The notes below the pieces were generated by a model that was not told the DNA's origin, made no database searches, and saw only the letters and a list, made by a program, of their open reading frames with translations. From an uncultured Bifidobacteriaceae bacterium (GTDB lineage Bacteria > Verrucomicrobiota > Verrucomicrobiia > Limisphaerales > UBA11358), in contig CAYVGC010000006.1 of the NCBI GenBank assembly GCA_964449815.1, positions 8,817 to 72,816 of the forward strand: DNA of 64,000 bases, in the 5' to 3' direction. Positions 1 through 20,314 of the stretch are shown in pieces. Every line of letters begins with the position of its first letter. The first letter of the stretch is position 1. The translations under genes were made by a program, and so were the position numbers.

Positions 1-470
1 ATTGCATGGTGGCGAGTTAGATATTCCGTCAGGCGATTGTTGCTGCGCTGCCATAGCGGCTCGCCACCGACATCATTGTCAACCTCACGCAAACGGAGGT
101 CGAGTCCATTGGCACGTTTGGCCTGCTCCTTTGGGAACGAAGGCAGTCCCTTGTGGTGAGAATAGGCTGCTACCGCCGCTTCCGTGCATAGAGGAAACAG
201 ATGAGCCGATGCCGCATCCCAATGCAACAAGCCGTGATTGGTCTGACGGTTGTGGGCCAGCACATCCTGAAAAACATCGTCCAGTTTGCCAAGGTCGTGA
301 TAATGCGCGGCCATCTCCAGAACATCGAGAAACCCGTCACGCCATCTGGGACAGTGCGTTGTGGCTTCACGACCGAAGCGTATAGCCAGCGAGATGACAT
401 TACCAACATGGTAACGATACCACTGCTCAGGTGCGCCATTGCGGGCGCTATGGGCGAGCGGCTCGCTCAC
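1..470 (-). CDS. cas3: Cas3-type HD nuclease domain protein, N-terminal 156 codons only (partial, continues beyond window start)
   Basis: Manual minus-strand translation; this ORF is not in the supplied track. It reads VSEPLAHSARNGAPEQWYRYHVGNVISLAIRFG...LEMAAHYHDLGKLDDVFQDVL...NHGLLHWDAASAHL...AAYSHHKGLPSF, with no stop codon down to position 1. The LAHS / H-x-x-x-V / HDLGK / HH pattern is that of Cas3 HD domains. The GTG at 470-468 overlaps the cas7 TGA at 469-467. Confidence 0.7.
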   Translation of the reverse strand, partial: MSEPLAHSARNGAPEQWYRYHVGNVISLAIRFGREATTHCPRWRDGFLDVLEMAAHYHDLGKLDDVFQDVLAHNRQTNHGLLHWDAASAHLFPLCTEAAVAAYSHHKGLPSFPKEQAKRANGLDLRLREVDNDVGGEPLWQRSNNRLTEYLTRHHA

Positions 471-1459
471 AGCAATGCGTAGTCGGTATAAATGCCGACG
501 TCATTCCAAGTCAAAGACTTGTCGCCTTGTTTTCGCACGACGTTGCCTTTGATCTCATCCCAAGTCGGAATCTGGTAATCCGCGCGAGAAGTGCTTGGCT
601 TCTCTGGATCATCCCCTTTCCGGACAAGCTTGAGTGCATCCAGCAACGCGAAATCCGAAAACGAACCGAGCTGGTCTTTGTGCTCGACGGCATGGGCATG
701 GATTAACTCGACTTGGGTGCGGACTGTCGAAGGATTGTCGCGGTAAGCGTGTTTCAGCAAATTAAGCATCAGCCGCACATCGTCACCAGTGCAGCCGGTT
801 TTCCGAGCCTGCGTCGGGTTGACGAAGAATGGCACAGTGTAGATGCCGTGCTCGACAAACTTCATGGCCTGCGGAGCAAAACCGCGATCCTTATCTCCTT
901 CCACGCCTGGTTTGTTCGTCCAAGTCTCGAAGCGAACTCGGACGGGCGCAACAGAAACGCCAACTCCAAAGTGGGCAGCGCCGGCTCGAATAGCTCTGTC
1001 CATAATTTTCCTTCGATCCTCAACCGTAAGCTTCTTGCCGGTTTCCTTCTCCAGCTTCTTCACACCCTCGTCCACAGCTTCCTTTCCCTCCAAGAACGTG
1101 CTGCCGAACAACCGTGCATCCCAGTAATCCTGTTGAAAGCGCCCGTCTGCGAGCTTCTTGAAAATTTCTTCCCGATCACGGTCGCGCTTTTCGAGAATGT
1201 CGAACCGGGCGTCCTCACCCAATGAGAGTCGTTGCTTCATCTCCTGCCAGATCAGCCCCTCCTTGTCAGAGACCAATTCGCGCAATTTGCGTTTGACCGA
1301 AACGGGCGAAATCTCGCCGCGATCATCCGGGCGCTGGCGAGGAAAACCTGCGTTGTCTGGGTCGCCGTTGGGGTTTGAGTCACGGACCTCGATGACGAGG
1401 AGTCCGGTGATGCGGGGAATATTGGAGTCGAGCATGGTTTGTTTTTCTTTTGCGTTCAT
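467..1459 (-). CDS. cas7: CRISPR-associated Cas7, subtype I-C (Csd2 family)
   Basis: N-terminus GLLVIEVRDSNPNGDPDNAGFPRQRPDDRGEISPVSVKRKLRELV carries the Csd2/Cas7c NPNGDP signature. It sits directly downstream of the cas8c-like gene. Confidence 0.85.
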   Translation of the reverse strand: MNAKEKQTMLDSNIPRITGLLVIEVRDSNPNGDPDNAGFPRQRPDDRGEISPVSVKRKLRELVSDKEGLIWQEMKQRLSLGEDARFDILEKRDRDREEIFKKLADGRFQQDYWDARLFGSTFLEGKEAVDEGVKKLEKETGKKLTVEDRRKIMDRAIRAGAAHFGVGVSVAPVRVRFETWTNKPGVEGDKDRGFAPQAMKFVEHGIYTVPFFVNPTQARKTGCTGDDVRLMLNLLKHAYRDNPSTVRTQVELIHAHAVEHKDQLGSFSDFALLDALKLVRKGDDPEKPSTSRADYQIPTWDEIKGNVVRKQGDKSLTWNDVGIYTDYALL

Positions 1460-1464
1460 AATTT

Positions 1465-3708
1465 TTATTCGTTGTTGGTTTCAGAGGTTGCGGTTTCTTC
1501 GTCGCCGGACACGTCGGCAAGATAACCGAGCATGAGTTGAGCTTTGGAGATGTCGTCCAGATGTTCCACTTTGCCCAATTGCTCCAGATTTTTCGTAATA
1601 CTGGGTTCGCAATGGGACATCGCTTTGAGAATCCGGGTTGCCTCGCCAGCATCCTCGCCGCGATAGGTTGTAGCCCAGCCTTTGTAGGGCTGAATGCGCG
1701 TCGCCAACTGGCGGAGCGCACGCGCTGGATTATCCAGCGCGGTGTTGAAGACCGCATTGCCCAAGAGTTCCGTTGGCGCGCTGATCTTCCCTTTTTCGCG
1801 GTCTTTCTCCGACGTGCGAACCCATTTGCAGTAGTGAAAATGCAACTTGTCAGCGAGCGCCAGCAGTTGCCCGATTTGGTAGAGGGTGTCTTTCATAAAG
1901 GTTTCGTGGTGTTGATCCAACAGGTGAAGGAAAATGCCTGTGAGTGCGACCGCCTTGAGCACGTCGCGGCGAGCTTCTTTGCTCAAAGGCCGCAGTTTTT
2001 CGAGCCATTCGAGTTCTCTGTCTCGCCGCGTGACTTTGAAGATCGCCGCTCGCGCGAAAACGGGCCGCATCCGAACCAAGAGCGTGTTCAATCCGAACCG
2101 AGCTTTCCTGGTTTGGAGCGGTGGTCCAGCGAGGAAAATATCCAAAGCATCGTCCCGCGAGAGCGACACCACTAAGTAGGATGACAAACCTTCCTTGGCG
2201 TCTGTTTTCCACACTTGATTCAAGACGAGCGCCACGTCCATCGGTCCAGGCACAATGCGGAACTTCTCGATGCGTCGTTTATTCTCCGTGACCCGTGTCG
2301 TGAGTCTGACTGGCGGGCAATTCTTTGCTCCTGCCTGCCACGATTTGGCTGCGGCATTGAGTTCGTGAACGGTGAGGCTGCGGTTGAGTCGCAGTTGTTT
2401 GTTGGCTGCGTCCACCTCGCCGATAGCGAAAAGCCGGATCAAAGCGTCCGGGGTCTTGGCTTCACGAGCGTCGAGTGTTTCAAGGATCAGTCTTGTTTTC
2501 TCTCCGTAGTCTGCACCAATGAAGTCACGGGCCGTCTCACCGAACACATCCACGTAACGGTCATCTGCGAGCGGCTCATCTTCGAGATACGCAACGAGTA
2601 GCTGCTTTTTGTCGCCGGGCAGGAGACGGCAAGTTTTGCCAGAAGCCACTCGGCCACCCAAGGCGACCAATGCAGCGTCATCGCCGGCCAGAGTGAAGAT
2701 GGCGGCAGACAGGCGATGGACATTCTCCGGGGAGACAACGAAAGTGCGCGTGTCTCCCAGCCCGTAGCGGAAAAAGCACTTTGCTTCGGCGGTGTTGTTG
2801 GAAAACAACTTGGTGTTTCCAAGCACGGACAGTTTTGGTTCGGGAAACTTCGGAGGCAACGAGCACTCTTTCCCGGTGTAGGCATCGCGCACGAGAGTGG
2901 GCGGCTCGGGTGAAACGGCCTTCTTCTTACGCGTCGCCGGCGAAGTCTTGCCGCGAGTCTCCCTGTCGTATGCCGGCGGGTCGGTCTCCAGAAAAAACTT
3001 GTTCAACGCCCGACTGGTGCGCGAATCAGCAACCGGAAATGTGCCTAAATCCGCAACGGCGAGATCAAAATAAACAGGCAGTTTGCGGTCGGTAAAGAGC
3101 CATTCGGCGAACAAAACCGCATCGGCTGAGGTGATGTCTCCGTCTTGTTTTACGAGCAGGTTTACGAGTTGCTCGGTCAATGCTTGCGGTTCAAGTCGCG
3201 CAGCCGAGACAACCTCGACCAGCTTTTTGAACACAGCCAGTTCATCCCCTGCTTGCGCAAGATCCCCTTGAAGCCATCCGACCAATTCATGAAGGGATCG
3301 TTTTGCTTGCTGCTTCTGTTTGTCCAACAATTCAACCGGCTTGGAACGGGCAAATCGTTTTTTTGTGAAACGCTTGAGTGAAGCAACGTCTGGCAACTTG
3401 CGACGTAGCGTCTTGAATTGCTCAGTCAATTTCTTTTCCCACTTTTCGACCCCGGTAAATCGGAATCGCCGCAAGGGCGTAGGCAGATTGAAACCGGGGA
3501 ACGCCGCGCCTTCCGAACCGTGACACACACGCAAAAGACTCCCTGCGTCACGGATAACGGAGAGCCTCGTCGGCATCCCGTCCGCACTCAGTTGTATAAG
3601 CAGGACCTGATCGTTCTTGCCCATCGGATCGAGATGGGGATGCAGTTCGATTGGCCTTACACCGCACCGCTCCAGCGCAGTCGCCGCCAGATAAAGTTCA
3701 TTGAGCAT
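1465..3708 (-). CDS. cas8c: CRISPR-associated large subunit, Cas8c (Csd1)-like, 747 aa
   Basis: Lies between cas5c and cas7c. The central LFSNNTAEAKCFFRYGLGD...VSPENVHRLSAAIFTL and the C-terminal AQLMLGYLA resemble Csd1 features. I moved the start to the ATG at 3708 (MLNELYLAA), because the track ORF's N-terminal 105 codons overlap cas5. Confidence 0.65.
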   Translation of the reverse strand: MLNELYLAATALERCGVRPIELHPHLDPMGKNDQVLLIQLSADGMPTRLSVIRDAGSLLRVCHGSEGAAFPGFNLPTPLRRFRFTGVEKWEKKLTEQFKTLRRKLPDVASLKRFTKKRFARSKPVELLDKQKQQAKRSLHELVGWLQGDLAQAGDELAVFKKLVEVVSAARLEPQALTEQLVNLLVKQDGDITSADAVLFAEWLFTDRKLPVYFDLAVADLGTFPVADSRTSRALNKFFLETDPPAYDRETRGKTSPATRKKKAVSPEPPTLVRDAYTGKECSLPPKFPEPKLSVLGNTKLFSNNTAEAKCFFRYGLGDTRTFVVSPENVHRLSAAIFTLAGDDAALVALGGRVASGKTCRLLPGDKKQLLVAYLEDEPLADDRYVDVFGETARDFIGADYGEKTRLILETLDAREAKTPDALIRLFAIGEVDAANKQLRLNRSLTVHELNAAAKSWQAGAKNCPPVRLTTRVTENKRRIEKFRIVPGPMDVALVLNQVWKTDAKEGLSSYLVVSLSRDDALDIFLAGPPLQTRKARFGLNTLLVRMRPVFARAAIFKVTRRDRELEWLEKLRPLSKEARRDVLKAVALTGIFLHLLDQHHETFMKDTLYQIGQLLALADKLHFHYCKWVRTSEKDREKGKISAPTELLGNAVFNTALDNPARALRQLATRIQPYKGWATTYRGEDAGEATRILKAMSHCEPSITKNLEQLGKVEHLDDISKAQLMLGYLADVSGDEETATSETNNE

Positions 3709-4351
3709 GGTTGGCCCTCCCTTCTCGATATTCGAGGACACCGTTGCGAACTTGCTGCGGATAATATGTCTCACGACCGCGCTGGCCCTGTTGAGGCCGG
3801 TCGAACACTGTCCAAAGCATCGCGGGGATTTCGTGGTGTTCCGACTCGCACGGGCGCGTGCCGTCGCGAAACAAGCCAAAGTAATCCGGAACAAATTCCT
3901 TCCAGCCCAAGCAAGGCGTGTGAAACCAGCGGCCTCGTTCCAAACGCCGATTGAAGACGTCAGCGTAGGCATGCGGGGAGCAAGTGCCGTCAGGAGAATC
4001 CGCCGGCTCTCCATTCGGCCCACGATTCCAGTCTGCCTGCGCGTAAAGGCGATAGCGCACGTTTATCAGCACTTGAGCGAAGATTTGTTTTGCGGCGTTC
4101 TTCTTCATCGCACCGGTGTCGCGCAGCGGCCCGCCATAGTTGAAAGCATAAGAATGGAATTGCACAGGCGCGCAGATTTCACAGCGAGTCGGACACACGT
4201 TCACGGACTTCCAACGCACTACAGCCTCGAACAGTCCTTTGGCCGCGCTAAATGTTGGCGCTGCGTAGGAAACCGGGTTTGGCAGTGTGTCAGGTCGCGT
4301 CCAAAGCGCGGTCGGGCCGGAGATTTCGAGTTGAATGGGATATGGTTTCAT
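3698..4351 (-). CDS. cas5: CRISPR-associated Cas5, subtype I-C (Cas5d, pre-crRNA-processing type)
   Basis: LEISGPTALWTRPDT...PVSYAAPTFSAAKGLFEAVVRWKS and RRLERGRWFHTPCLGWKEFVPDYF match the Cas5d pattern (RR..G..f..P.LG.rEF). Confidence 0.8.
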   Translation of the reverse strand: MKPYPIQLEISGPTALWTRPDTLPNPVSYAAPTFSAAKGLFEAVVRWKSVNVCPTRCEICAPVQFHSYAFNYGGPLRDTGAMKKNAAKQIFAQVLINVRYRLYAQADWNRGPNGEPADSPDGTCSPHAYADVFNRRLERGRWFHTPCLGWKEFVPDYFGLFRDGTRPCESEHHEIPAMLWTVFDRPQQGQRGRETYYPQQVRNGVLEYREGRANHAQ

Positions 4352-4593
4352 AAATCATGCAGAAATCCGACCAGCTTGGCTTCATTGGCTATGTTAAATG
4401 GCGTGGTGAATTGCCCGGCAAGTTCGGCGACATTGGACAAATGCGTGGCCAGTGGCTGCCATTGGCCAGAAGATTCTGGTAGTGGTGTCCCATTTTCACC
4501 GACCGCAGTGTGCGCGTAGAATTTCACACGTTTCCCTTTAACCTGAAATTGAATGTGTCTTGGTAAATCGCCACCGTCCTGATGACAAGCCAA
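4348..4593 (-). pseudogene. Cas3 N-terminal stub, terminating inside the HD motif (probable deletion remnant)
   Basis: (R)VKFYAHTAVGENGTPLPESSGQWQPLATHLSNVAELAGQF...EAKLVGFLHDL-stop is a canonical Cas3 N-terminus up to the HD of HDxGK. The track start at 4593 is a TTG; a GTG at 4527 (VKFYAHT) is the more Cas3-like start. The stop TGA overlaps the cas5 ATG (TTATGA). Confidence 0.6.
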
Positions 4594-5473
4594 ATTTGTT
4601 ACAATTTTTCATATCTGCGAAAACCTTAACAAAGGGGGTAGGACAAATGCGGTCCAACCCTTAATCTATTTTCAGATTTTTTTGGCCGAAAATTTCACAG
4701 GCATTTTCCAAGTGGTTGACATCGCACGCCGGTTGAATGTGGCGGCAGACAACGGCCTTTCACCGCCGCTTCGCTTTGTTGAAATGCCGCTGACTGCCTT
4801 GCAGGTGATGGCCTGACTCCGTCTGGTTCAGATGGCTTCACTCCACTGCTCTCCGCGTGACCACGCGACCATTGCCCGCCTGATCACACTCCGTTTGGTT
4901 TCGTTCCGCCATCTGAATCCGGCGGAGACAGCCCGGGAGGGCGCGCGGCTTCGCCCGCCCAAACTCAAAGCAATAGGCCGCTAGGCTGCGCCACGGCCAA
5001 GACATCGGCATTAGCCGTGAGACCGGCCAGCTTTCGCTCATTCCGCTAATCTTCCGCTGCATTCCATTTCGCTCCAGAGCGCTACAATCACAAAACTGTC
5101 AGGCCTCACTGACCAAACCAATTTTAGTCTGACCACCGCCGGTTTGGTTTCCGCTGCGCTCCACCCAAACCAACGGGCGTCAGAGCCGGCAAGATTTGTG
5201 CCTTCGGCGACTCTGCGAGGCCAAGAGAGTTTTGGTTGGTGTTTTTGACATGGCACGTTTTGTTGATAAGCTGGGGCCGTCAGGGTCTCACCGTAAGCCG
5301 CTTGCTGCTCCGCCATCTTTTTCAAGTTTTTTAATTCCCGTTGTCACGGGGCGCTTTTTTCCCGGCGACGCACAGGGCATGGGCCACGCCAGCGCCCCGG
5401 CTATCGGGTAACGCCGAAACTTTCGCTGTCATGCCCCATGCACGCCGGAAAAAAACCGAGGTCAGTTCAAAAA

Positions 5474-5926
5474 ATGGCTCCGCGAGGGATGAAGCAAGCG
5501 GCATACGGCGAGACACGGACGGCGATCATCAAAAAAAAGCTTATGAAAAACAAAATATCAATTGAAGCAGCGGCTCCAGCAAACGCCAGCCAGCCATCAT
5601 CATTCAAGGCGGCTAAACAAACCGGTTTTGTCAGGCATTGCGCCAATCGCCGGTTGCCCACGGAAAAAGTCTTGAATTGCTTGCGAACGCAGTTGCCGAG
5701 TCAGTATGAATTGGCGGAGGTGGTCGGCAAATGGGTTTGGTTGGACGTTTCGCCCGCCCGCAAGCCCGGTCTGGCCAGTGTGCTTTGGACTTTGGGCTTC
5801 CATTGGAACCAGCGGCGCGGTGTCTGGCAGCATCCGTGCGGCAGGTTTGACCCGCTTGGCAGCCATCCCACCGACCCCCGCGCCAAGTATCGCTGCTATT
5901 TTCCCGCCGACATGCAGCCCGCGTGA
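5474..5926 (+). CDS. Hypothetical protein with Trp-rich C-terminal motif, possibly mobile-element associated
   Basis: C-terminal ELAEVVGKWVWLDVSPARKPGLASVLWTLGFHWNQRRGVWQHPCG looks protein-like and conserved, and recalls small plasmid/phage-borne domains (from memory, unverified). The start could be 5438 or 5474. Confidence 0.45.
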   Translation: MAPRGMKQAAYGETRTAIIKKKLMKNKISIEAAAPANASQPSSFKAAKQTGFVRHCANRRLPTEKVLNCLRTQLPSQYELAEVVGKWVWLDVSPARKPGLASVLWTLGFHWNQRRGVWQHPCGRFDPLGSHPTDPRAKYRCYFPADMQPA

Positions 5927-6109
5927 ACCAAAAACCGCCATGAACATTTCACCCATTATGGCACTGGCACTGTCAGTGAAACTGTCAGTCAGGGCTAACG
6001 CCGATAGCCGAAAATTCTGGCGGATTAACCCGAATAGTCTTTAATTTCCCCAACGATTTGCTAAATTCCATTTATCTGAATCAATGCAACAGACTGTGCC
6101 CATCTGTGG

Positions 6110-6763
6110 CTAAAACAGTTTTGGCTCCGGCTGCTTGATCGGCGCGAAGCTTCTCCGGTGGATTGGACATGCGCCGAATTGCGCAATTGCCGCCAGATGC
6201 TTCGCCGTGCCGTAGCCTTTGTGCCCGGCAAAACCGTATTCGGGAAACTGCGCGTGAAATTCCAGCATCAGCCGGTCGCGCGTGACCTTGGCCAGCACGC
6301 TCGCGGCGGCGATGGAATAGCTCCGCGCATCGCCCTTAACGATGGCCGTCTGCGGCACACGCAGGGTTTTCACGGGGCGGCCGTCCACGAGCGCGTGCGG
6401 CGGCAGCGGATTCAATTTTGCCAGCGCATCGTTCATCGCGCGATGCGTGGCCTGCAAAATATTGATCTCGTCAATCACCGCCGCGTCCACCTCGGCGATG
6501 CCGAATTCGATTTCGCCGCAGGTGGTGATGAAGGCGAAAAACCTTTCACGCTGCGCGGCGGTGAGCTGCTTGGAATCGTTCAAGCTGGTGAGTTCAGCGG
6601 GCAGACCCGTTTTCGCCCAGCGCGGCGGCAGGATGGCGGCGGCGGCAACGACCGGCCCGGCGAGCGGCCCGCGTCCGGCCTCGTCCACGCCCGCGACGCG
6701 CGCGACGCCCTGCTGCCAGAGGGCGCGCTCGAATTCAAAACTGATGGGGAATTTAACGGGCAT
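6110..6763 (-). CDS. rnhB: Ribonuclease HII
   Basis: VAGVDEAGRGPLAGPVVAAA and DSKQLT motifs; typical length. Confidence 0.9.
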   Translation of the reverse strand: MPVKFPISFEFERALWQQGVARVAGVDEAGRGPLAGPVVAAAAILPPRWAKTGLPAELTSLNDSKQLTAAQRERFFAFITTCGEIEFGIAEVDAAVIDEINILQATHRAMNDALAKLNPLPPHALVDGRPVKTLRVPQTAIVKGDARSYSIAAASVLAKVTRDRLMLEFHAQFPEYGFAGHKGYGTAKHLAAIAQFGACPIHRRSFAPIKQPEPKLF

Positions 6764-18660: not shown

Positions 18661-19260
18661 ATGAAATCATTGCCGGGCGGAAACAAACCCGTTAACCTGC
18701 GCCAAGTTTTTATGACCCCGGTTGACAACACCCTGCAACGCTGGCGCATCAACAAGGCCGCGCAGCACATCGCGCCCGGGTCCCGCGTGCTGGACATCGG
18801 CAGCGCCGACGGCGCGCTGTTCAAGGCGCTGGGTGACAAACTCCGCAGCGGGCTGGGCGTGGATCCCGACTTGCCGGCCGACCGGGATTTGGGCCGCTGC
18901 CAGCTCAAGTCCGGATTTTTTCCTGACGCCATCCCCGCCGGCTGCGAACCGTTTGATGTCATCACCATGCTCGCCGTGCTGGAACATTTTCCCGACCCGA
19001 TGTATGCGACCTTGGGCGCAGACTGCGCCCGCTTTCTAAAACCAAACGGCCGGATGATCATCACGGTGCCATCGCCCATGGTGGACCATATTCTCACGGT
19101 GTTGAAATGGTTCCGGCTGATTGACGGCATGTGCCTCGAAGAGCATCACGGCTACGACACCAAACGCACCCGGACGGTTTTCGCCCCGCACTTCCGGCTC
19201 ATCCGCCACCGGCGGTTTCAGCTTGGCCTGAACAATCTGTTCGTCTTCGAAAAAGTTTGA
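18661..19260 (+). CDS. Class I SAM-dependent methyltransferase
   Basis: VLDIGSADGALF (motif I) ... ITMLAVLEHFPDP ... LKPNGRMIITVP. Confidence 0.75.
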   Translation: MKSLPGGNKPVNLRQVFMTPVDNTLQRWRINKAAQHIAPGSRVLDIGSADGALFKALGDKLRSGLGVDPDLPADRDLGRCQLKSGFFPDAIPAGCEPFDVITMLAVLEHFPDPMYATLGADCARFLKPNGRMIITVPSPMVDHILTVLKWFRLIDGMCLEEHHGYDTKRTRTVFAPHFRLIRHRRFQLGLNNLFVFEKV

Positions 19261-19540
19261 ACGGGCGCCGTGCGGCCGGCTTGCCGACGAGAAATGATCC
19301 GGAGTCGTGGGCGCGGCTCAATCAGGGCGCGCGGTGCCGCTGGCTCATTAAGTTTAGCGCATAATTGCCTTGCACCTTGGCATTGCCCTGAATTCGGAAA
19401 GACGTTTCCAAATGTCGGATTGGACGAAGTTTTTTACCTTGGGTTAGATTTTATTCCCGTGACTGCGTTTCCCTCTCGACAGTTCCGTCCACATTTTCGC
19501 AGGCTGGTTTTTTCACGGTAATTTTGTAAACTCCGCAAAA

Positions 19541-20314
19541 TTGCAAACCGCAACTGAACAAAAATTCCGCATCGGCTCCGTGCATTACCTGAATGCCGCG
19601 CCGCTCACGCGCGGCCTGAACAGTGAAATCATTTTTACCACGCCCGCCAAGCTCGCCGAAATGCTCCGGCGCGACGAGTTGGATGCCGCGCTCGTCAGCG
19701 TCACCGAGGTTCTGCTCACCGACCGCTACGACATCCTCGACGACATCGCCATCGCCTCGCTCGGCGAAGTTTACAGCGTGCTGCTGGCACATAAAAAACC
19801 GCTGGCCAAGGCCCGGGAAATATTCTGCGACACCGCGTCGCTCACCAGCGTGAACCTGTTGAAAGTCCTGCTGGCCGAGCGCGGCTTGAAACCGGAGTTC
19901 AAGCCGCTGGAAAATTATGCCGCCGCCGTGGAAAAGGATTTTGTCCTGCTCATCGGCGACCGGGCGATTGAATTCCAGCGCGCCCCGCACGCGCACGAGA
20001 TTTTTGACCTCGGCTCGGCGTGGCTGGAACTGACGCGACTGCCCTTTGTTTATGCCGTCTGGGCGCTGCGGCGCGGCATTGAGAACCGCGGGCTGCGCCG
20101 CGAACTCAAGGAGGCGAAGCGGTTCGGCCTCGAAACGCTCGACAACATCATCGAGACGCGCGAGGAATTCGACGAGGCTTTCCGGCGCGATTATTTCGAG
20201 TGGCACATCCACTACCACCTCGGCGAGGATGAAAAACGCGCCCTCGCCCGGTTCAGCGAGCTGCTCTGCAAGCACAATCTCGGCCCCGTGTTCGCGCCGA
20301 AGTATGTCGCCTGA
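19541..20314 (+). CDS. mqnA: Chorismate dehydratase (futalosine pathway, MqnA family)
   Basis: FRIGSVHYLNAAPLTRGL N-terminus, about 257 aa, periplasmic-binding-protein-like fold pattern typical of MqnA. Confidence 0.7.
   Translation: MQTATEQKFRIGSVHYLNAAPLTRGLNSEIIFTTPAKLAEMLRRDELDAALVSVTEVLLTDRYDILDDIAIASLGEVYSVLLAHKKPLAKAREIFCDTASLTSVNLLKVLLAERGLKPEFKPLENYAAAVEKDFVLLIGDRAIEFQRAPHAHEIFDLGSAWLELTRLPFVYAVWALRRGIENRGLRRELKEAKRFGLETLDNIIETREEFDEAFRRDYFEWHIHYHLGEDEKRALARFSELLCKHNLGPVFAPKYVA

Follow-up and report, generated by a model that had tools for sequence, protein, structure and literature searches.

We examined a short open reading frame (ORF) that stands at the head of a CRISPR-cas operon in a 64,000-nucleotide (nt) stretch of contig CAYVGC010000006.1 (assembly GCA_964449815.1), hereafter the window. 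An earlier note on this DNA had described a Cas3-like N-terminal ORF that stops at the HD motif and whose stop codon overlaps the ATG of cas5, and we confirmed this arrangement on the minus strand. In its longest form the ORF runs from 4593 to 4348 with a TTG start and encodes 81 amino acids (aa). The true start of this cas3 stub is likely the GTG at 4527, which would give 59 codons and a stop (4348..4527; TGA at 4350-4348): the GTG occupies the start position that stubs and full-length Cas3 homologues all share, AAAGGGAAA, rich in purines, stands 4 nt upstream of it, and the N-terminus of every homologue, short or full length, reads (M/V)K(Y/F)YAHTA. The stub translates as VKFYAHTAVGENGTPLPESSGQWQPLATHLSNVAELAGQFTTPFNIANEAKLVGFLHDL before its stop, ending in ...EAKLVGFLHDL. 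The DNA at this point reads CTG CAT GAT TTA TGA, and the embedded ATG (4351-4349) of the next gene, cas5', overlaps the stub TGA as ATGA; here and below, a prime marks the genes of the divergent effector cassette that follows the stub.

The resemblance of the stub to Cas3 is far above chance. The full-length Cas3 of locus L010, the closest canonical relative, aligned to window positions 4527-4351 (tblastn) with 86% identity over residues 1-59 (E=1e-27), and the stub matched profile positions 1-42 of the 178 of NCBIfam cas3_HD in register, at 16.8 bits and thus below the cut-off of 43.45; a Pfam search of the stub returned no match. Collinear with residues 1-59 of full-length Cas3 in syntenic loci, and sharing their start codon and leader, the ORF is what is left of the 5' end of a canonical type I-C cas3, cut one codon past the HD dyad, as had been supposed. 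Of the HD motifs it contains I (His6) and II (His57-Asp58) only, terminates one residue past motif II and covers less than 25% of the HD domain; its 59 codons include neither the complete HD domain (motifs I-V) nor the SF2 helicase core (Walker A, DEAH) and C-terminal domain of a functional Cas3. The metal site of the Cas3 HD domain, as known from structures, also requires later His/Asp motifs. With motifs I and II alone the peptide cannot form the Cas3 active site, and judged from its motifs this 6-kDa product most likely has no function of its own.

Downstream on the minus strand follow cas5', cas8', cas7' and an HD-domain ORF that leaves the window. The first gene, cas5' (3698..4351, 217 aa), scored 43.8 bits against the Cas5c model (cut-off 85) and 36.7 bits against Pfam Cas_Cas5d; the large-subunit gene cas8' (1465..3708, 747 aa) matched none of the family models and had no detectable similarity to Cas8c/Csd1; and cas7' (467..1459, 330 aa) reached 136 bits against Pfam Cas_Cas7 and 98.5 bits against the Csd2 model, under its cut-off of 182. 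The HD-domain ORF is the 5' part of cas3' (1..470), of which 156 codons fall in the window before its edge cuts the gene; the GTG start at 470 overlaps the cas7' stop (GTGA), and the HD motifs AHS, HYHDLGK and SHHKG are visible in this part. The remainder can be read in locus L001, a 123-kb contig from a JGI bog metagenome that equals the window at all 5,300 positions compared and is ordered stub, cas5', cas8', cas7', cas3', a 61-aa ORF, ParE, cas4, DUF6429, cas1, cas2 and array. A CRISPR array search of the window found none; the array of L001, with 15 repeats at about 19150-20192, lies beyond the window start.

In L001, the 761-aa cas3' directly after cas7' carries HD, ResIII/DEAD, Helicase_C and Cas3-like C-terminal (Cas3-like_C_2) domains together with GTGKT and DEAH motifs, scores 49.3 bits against cas3_HD, above the cut-off, and is 28% identical overall to the cas3 lineage from which the stub derives (full-length alignment). 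The stub and the downstream HD ORF are therefore alike at motif level only and are not recent duplicates, just as the earlier note had it, but its proposal of a Cascade left without a cognate nuclease falls. Because an intact cas3' follows cas7', the system is by its gene content not Cas3-less, and cas3' is predicted to be its real, complete Cas3; binding-only type I systems have no functional cas3 in or beside the locus, and here an intact cas3' lies within the operon. Nor is this a canonical I-C locus, in which Cas5c, Cas8c/Csd1 and Cas7/Csd2 exceed the curated cut-offs. With cas3' last in the order, cas6 absent and a repeat of I-C type (GTCGCCCC...GGATTGAAAC), the window locus is probably best labelled an I-C-like variant.

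The origin of the stub became apparent from its relatives. A search with the stub protein recovered 31 clusters, all of short proteins (55-131 aa), and DNA-level retrieval through the stub alignment gave 91 loci, in most of which the match is the N-terminus of a 737-774-aa Cas3 heading a canonical I-C operon. The host bins of these canonical loci are mostly Verrucomicrobiota metagenome-assembled genomes (MAGs; Limisphaerales, Opitutaceae, Chthoniobacterales). Loci with a full-length Cas3 that matches the stub at 76-86% identity over its N-terminus have canonical Cas5c, Cas8c/Csd1 and Cas7/Csd2, all three above NCBIfam curated cut-offs in L010. Their Cas5c is 25-28% identical to the window cas5' product and their Cas7 22-25% to that of cas7', and no similarity was detectable between canonical Cas8c and the window Cas8'; their ParE, Cas4, Cas1 and Cas2 match the L001 proteins at 74-95% identity (ParE 95% aa; Cas4, Cas1 and Cas2 74-89% aa). 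None of the ~45 loci whose stub-type cas3 ORF is complete or long enough to judge has cas5' as its next gene. Canonical and variant loci share a 37-nt repeat composed of GTCGCCCC, a variable stem-loop and GGATTGAAAC, found in the arrays of L001 (19153-20192), L013, L015, L017, L038, L081, L082, L092, L100 and L102-L104, and this common repeat class would explain why swaps between the two module types are viable. The shared repeat also implies that the very different Cas5c and Cas5' process the same kind of repeat.

Comparison of L001 with L010 located the borders of the exchanged segment to the base. Homology between the two (blastn) extends over 975 nt at 85.8% (L001 9026-10000, L010 1-973) and stops at window position 4352, the last base homologous to canonical cas3, which places the left recombination breakpoint and the ATGA overlap at 4348..4352 on the minus strand. 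Similarity to canonical cas3 stops precisely at ...CATGATTT; identity at the base level is 84% up to ...CTGCATGATTT and 22% beyond it, where the canonical gene continues with GGGGAAATAC (HDLGKY) and the window with ATGAAACC (cas5'). Across the effector genes blastn found no homology between L001 and L010. It restarts at 83% from L001 16162, which is five bases short of the cas3' end, and continues through the adaptation genes and repeats; the right border falls where cas3' and canonical cas7 have their stop codons. Since DNA homology stops at CATGATTT and restarts at the cas3' stop, we conclude that a cassette was replaced, and the alignments indicate that the swapped segment reaches from the cas5' ATG to the cas3' stop, in place of cas3 codon 60 through the cas7 stop. 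Homologous flanks, sharp breakpoints and unrelated DNA between them were found both for L001 against L010 and for L037 against L036 and L038. The alignment to intact I-C relatives that the earlier note had called for thus did map breakpoints (window 4352 and the cas3' stop), but those of a replacement rather than of the deletion that it had expected.

Upstream of the stub, the conserved 5' leader and putative promoter region (4528..4660, minus strand) is inherited from the resident cas3 and common to canonical and variant relatives; homology to L015, L017 and L019 starts at L001 9692-9693 (window 4659-4660), and that to L080 at L001 9677 (window 4675). The further upstream flank (4661..5326, minus strand), ~86% identical to L010, belongs to the conserved left flank of the cassette. 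An Rfam scan of 4200-6200 matched no family.

Taken together, the 59-codon ORF is very probably a scar that recombination left when an effector module was replaced, and consists of the 5' end of a canonical I-C cas3 that was resident there. The resident block of ~5.5 kb (the rest of cas3, cas5c, cas8c and cas7c) would have been replaced by a divergent I-C-like cassette of ~6.2 kb, cas5'-cas8'-cas7'-cas3', running from the cas5' ATG to the stop of its own full-length cas3'. Retained on the left would be the upstream region, the cas3 leader and the first 59 codons, and on the right the small ORF and ParE pair, cas4, cas1, cas2 and the array with its I-C repeats. The junction (...CAT GAT TT|ATG AAA CC...) may have arisen once, after which homologous recombination would have carried it between I-C loci of Verrucomicrobiota: the stub, which is homologous to the 5' ends of resident cas3 genes, would serve as the left arm and the adaptation genes as the right arm, with crossovers inside the stub and the adaptation module. 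The stub would supply the inherited cas3 promoter, leader and start codon, and the ATGA overlap may hand ribosomes to cas5' by termination-reinitiation; interference would then be carried out by the divergent Cascade and the downstream Cas3'.

The distribution of the junction is consistent with such spread. The identical junction CATGATTTATGAARCC was present in 17 loci: eight contigs (L001-L008) from seven JGI, ENA and Logan samples carry identical sequence, and nine diverged loci add the junction motif, with MAGs on long contigs (70-555 kb) among them. Some junction-bearing lineages have a stub only 54-65% identical to that of the window (L025, L037, L040, L100). The stub and the adjacent cas5' also have different histories, as seen from their synonymous divergence (dS): between L001 and L015 the stub dS is 0.20 and the cas5' dS 1.99, and in the opposite sense the stub dS is saturated and the cas5' dS is 0.53 between L001 and L037 and 0.72 between L001 and L040. 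For five of the seven intact stubs the best match was the N-terminus of a full-length Cas3 and not another stub, and for the other two (L001, L080) the top match was likewise full length, with a stub second. Spread by homologous recombination would explain why stubs resemble the local full-length cas3 more than each other and yet share one junction.

L037 offers the clearest instance of a swap, and a very recent one: over its left 216 nt it matches the canonical loci L036 and L038 at 95.8% identity, and over its right flank it matches L036 at 95-98% and L038 at 89-95%, with unrelated genes (the cas5'..cas3' cassette) between these flanks. A few donor-type bases occur in the last ~30 nt 5' of its junction. 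Some metagenomes contained both canonical and variant loci: Ga0181529 has L001 and L013, and Ga0182027 has L037 together with L021, L023 and L047. On grounds of parsimony we infer that the junction originated a single time and that homologous recombination later carried it into further canonical I-C loci. We rejected independent, recurrent breaks at the HD codons, since the junction is identical at the nucleotide level and short donor-type tracts lie just 5' of it.

Scars of the reverse exchange were found as well. At five loci, cas5' fragments lie upstream of a full-length cas3 that heads a canonical I-C operon: in L107 (7001-9839) and L109 (7001-10173) the fragment is nearly full length, and in L078 (9777-9872), L091 (9400-10186) and L093 (9773-9967) it is 30-60 residues long, the overall range reaching ~195 residues. 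L091 has a stub, a cas5' fragment and a full cas3 in series, its stub and the 5' end of its current cas3 being 84% identical duplicates around the cas5' fragment. Other loci hold nested remnants: L092 (10001-10725) combines a frameshifted stub, an almost complete older cas5' and the current cas5', L051 (377-1971) has nested or tandem remnants upstream of cas5', and L069 (1095-1392), L104 (8565-9000) and L105 (6295-7000) each carry two successive stubs of unequal length. These nested remnants suggest several successive replacements at one site, and the 5' end of the operon can be read as a palimpsest of repeated effector swaps in both directions. In L095 (10001-10560) and L026 (339-860) a stub ends in ...LLHD(F)-Q(I/T)QNHQ(T/L) and a stop, and within ~25 nt stands another, third cas3 lineage that reads MRLEAHPGQSLADHL...LLHDLGKAEEEF and has a related protein of 845 aa in L078; in a hand alignment, the conserved tail of the two loci may be the same junction with a degenerate cas5' start, and so a later layer.

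Intactness of the stub varied among lineages. Half of the 12 variant lineages selected through the stub have it frameshifted, truncated or internally deleted (L041, L048, L051, L069, L084, L092). Among nine variant loci that we sampled through Cas5', independently of the stub, it is intact in one (L100), degenerate in four (L102, L104, L105, L107) and absent from four (L103, L106, L108, L109). With stubs intact, decayed or absent across lineages, and with reverse and nested scars beside them, selection on the stub peptide is unlikely. The stub probably persists as a leader ORF that bears the promoter, and it may couple translation of cas5'. One decaying variant, L080 (10001-12235), has an intact stub and the standard junction, with cas5' reduced to MKPYP fused into a cas8' fragment; its cas3' is truncated and its ParE pair relocated upstream.

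Several observations weigh against parts of this account. The single origin of the junction and its homologous spread are an argument from parsimony rather than a direct demonstration. A scan for sigma-70 consensus sequences upstream on the coding (minus) strand found none, so that the promoter role of the leader stays inferred, and translational coupling is proposed from the ATGA overlap. By eye, many loci with a decayed stub also have no obvious Shine-Dalgarno sequence before cas5', in which case coupling may not be needed. The ratio of nonsynonymous to synonymous change (dN/dS) is no higher in stubs than in full-length N-termini, and purifying selection on the peptide would look alike. Finally, the comparison of constraint in stubs and full-length Cas3 given below is biased by the choice of columns (ascertainment) and by shared ancestry, seven of the deviations being one shared Leu-to-Phe change.

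A function in translation is plausible from the arrangement of the two genes, the stub acting as a leader ORF coupled to cas5'. By eye, the junction-bearing loci have no obvious Shine-Dalgarno sequence before cas5', and several stub-less loci have GGAG or GAGGA there. We consider it doubtful that the stub is kept open for two jobs at once, as a leader ORF that brings ribosomes to a cas5' without a Shine-Dalgarno sequence and as a portable left homology arm. If so, the homology arm and the conserved adaptation genes would make the whole effector module an exchangeable cassette, and co-occurring Verrucomicrobiota strains could switch back and forth between two Cascade/Cas3 types that use the same array, possibly under pressure from anti-CRISPR proteins, with the layered and reverse scars as the record of these flips.

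It is improbable that the stub is a genuine small protein under purifying selection, for example a mimic of the Cas3 N-terminus that regulates recruitment of Cas3' or assembly of Cascade. The earlier note had reasoned that the same short ORF under purifying selection in many genomes would mark a real small gene, and the ORF does remain open in at least seven diverged lineages, whose stubs share its start and stop and have 54-84% aa identity to that of the window; proteins of 55-91 aa fall in 31 clusters, and His6, His57 and Asp58 are kept in every intact stub. Pairwise Nei-Gojobori dN/dS is ~0.25 as well, but it is so for stub-stub (about 0.22-0.28), stub-full and full-full comparisons alike, and it is uninformative because most of the divergence accrued inside functional cas3 genes through recombination and the stub has only 59 codons; we dropped it as a test of peptide function, since stub and cas5' have different histories. 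The stubs are instead polyphyletic and mostly nearest to the local full-length Cas3, and the decoupling of their synonymous divergence from that of the adjacent cas5' indicates that their conservation was mostly acquired while they were part of a functional cas3. In most independently sampled variant loci the stub is frameshifted, truncated or missing, and it is absent from more distant cas3-last systems with an otherwise full gene set (L103, L108). Counted over those alignment columns that full-length Cas3 conserves to at least 90%, changes were 3.3-fold more frequent in stubs (32/392) than in full-length proteins (26/978; Fisher p=2e-5), an excess at the very positions that real Cas3 conserves, and the peptide makes up less than a quarter of an HD domain. 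The recurrence of the ORF thus stands, but a real small gene does not follow from it, its conservation being explained by recombination with functional cas3.

We regard as highly improbable the near-total in-frame deletion of a native cas3 that the earlier note had favored, in which the native coupling of cas3 stop and cas5 start is kept and a nuclease-less, binding-only Cascade is left. The stub is truly a cas3 5' fragment ending at the HD motif, and some canonical relatives (L013, L081, L082, L094) do have a 4-nt overlap between the cas3 stop and the cas5c start. Yet the cas5' next to the stub is not its native partner, as the low identities of cas5' and cas7' to the genes of relatives and the lack of similarity between cas8' and Cas8c make plain, and no judgeable stub-type cas3 locus has cas5' next. 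Moreover, cas3' is complete after cas7', with HD and helicase motifs, and cas3-last loci occur without any stub. Internal deletion of an ancestral cas3-cas5'-cas8'-cas7' operon was rejected on similar grounds: no full-length stub-type cas3 precedes cas5', and stub-less cas3-last loci exist.

An assembly or binning artefact, in which a cas3 contig and a cas5-first contig were joined at a short repeat, has a negligible probability. All of the data are metagenomic assemblies, and canonical and variant loci do share samples (L001 and L013 both come from Ga0181529), but the junction recurs in eight contigs from seven samples and in nine diverged loci, long MAG contigs included, and is therefore no product of mis-assembly or assembly collapse; flanks and cassette also diverge coherently among loci. 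Programmed -1 frameshifting at ...GAT TTA TGA, which would fuse the stub to Cas5' and give it an HD-motif extension, can be set aside as just as improbable: cas5' does lie in the -1 frame relative to the stub with a 4-nt ORF overlap, but a canonical slippery heptamer is absent, the ATG of Cas5' is conserved and its N-terminus unchanged in loci with no stub or a decayed one, and an ATGA stop-start overlap is an ordinary signature of neighboring operon genes.

Effector-module replacement, our preferred explanation, sets the window locus among several known systems. Its stub, leader, adaptation genes and 37-nt repeat ending in GGATTGAAAC are those of canonical type I-C (cas3-cas5c-cas8c-cas7-cas4-cas1-cas2), and like that type it lacks cas6 and has a Cas5-family protein as the first Cascade gene; unlike it, Cas5' and Cas7' fall below the I-C cut-offs, Cas8' is unrecognizable and cas3 comes last instead of first. 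Gene remnants at the borders of replaced cassettes are exemplified by the alternative cas operon variants at one chromosomal site of Escherichia coli. Such remnants share with the stub the conserved flanks, abrupt loss of homology, first gene cut short at the border and decay in part of the lineages, but here the frame has stayed open, its stop overlaps the next start, and it has apparently been reused as a homology arm. The stub itself is thus ordinary, since genes cut short at the edge of a replaced cassette are objects of a known kind.

CRISPR-cas modules are known to be shuffled, with adaptation and effector modules evolving semi-independently (Koonin and Makarova 2019, PMC6452270; Makarova et al. 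2025, PMC12669027). The present case is similar in that one adaptation module and array are combined with alternative effector modules, but differs in that the exchange is resolved to the nucleotide, stays within one subtype, runs in both directions and leaves layered 5' remnants. Type I derivatives that truly lack Cas3 include CAST I-F3/I-B2 and the HNH-bearing I-E2/I-F4 (PMC12669027); the resemblance, a Cascade operon with no full cas3 at the usual position, is superficial, as the window locus has a complete cas3' right after cas7'. The cas3-last I-C-like variant is widespread, Cas5' having 1258 homologues at E below 1e-10. We found no description of a cas3-last I-C variant in the 2025 classification text (PMC12669027) or the searchable literature, and none of cas3 stubs of this sort in the searchable literature, where the general concept of module shuffling is present. 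Repeated, bidirectional and nucleotide-precise effector swaps within one subtype are moderately interesting.

For annotation, the locus should probably be recorded as a complete, interference-competent system, which corrects the tempting label of a Cas3-less, binding-only one. The stub also offers a caution about method, as a short ORF conserved in many genomes is no proof of a functional small gene when its conservation can be borrowed through recombination. What it does mark, at nucleotide resolution, is the exchange of effector modules within a single CRISPR subtype. Repeats, adaptation genes and promoter region are common to canonical and cas3-last I-C modules, which have replaced each other repeatedly and both ways in peat and soil Verrucomicrobiota; with both alleles in the same metagenome, they form a natural system for asking what drives effector turnover, for which anti-CRISPR pressure is a candidate, and how well diverged Cascades can work with one common array.

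Some minor features of the locus and its relatives remain to be reported. The 61-aa ORF and the ParE-family toxin gene lie between cas3' and cas4 (L001 16221-16699), and the DUF6429 gene between cas4 and cas1 (L001 17313-17552), both beyond the window start; the ParE pair is present in canonical L010 too, at 95% aa identity, and therefore counts as part of the conserved right flank, outside the swapped cassette. Relatives of the stub or Cas3 N-terminus also occurred in bins outside Verrucomicrobiota, namely L084 (a MAG labeled Formivibrio), L096 (Castellaniella), L098 (Gammaproteobacteria) and L099 (Bryobacteraceae), which could be due to horizontal transfer or mis-binning; L084 has a decayed stub with cas5' and cas8' on a 3.8-kb contig. 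The ~800 nt upstream of the stub, ~86% identical to L010 as noted, hold no convincing ORF, and beside this flank a 162-aa ORF on the plus strand (5438-5926) had no Pfam or NCBIfam match. In L002 the CRISPR-cas locus recurs unchanged together with ~1.8 kb of its upstream flank, and homology to L001 stops at the edge of the RNase HII gene, at about window 6115 (L001 8237). The locus may thus be an island in differing genomic contexts, or one of the two contigs may be chimeric: beyond the flank, L002 has methyltransferase and sugar-nucleotide genes, and L001 has RNase HII, a fucosidase and others.

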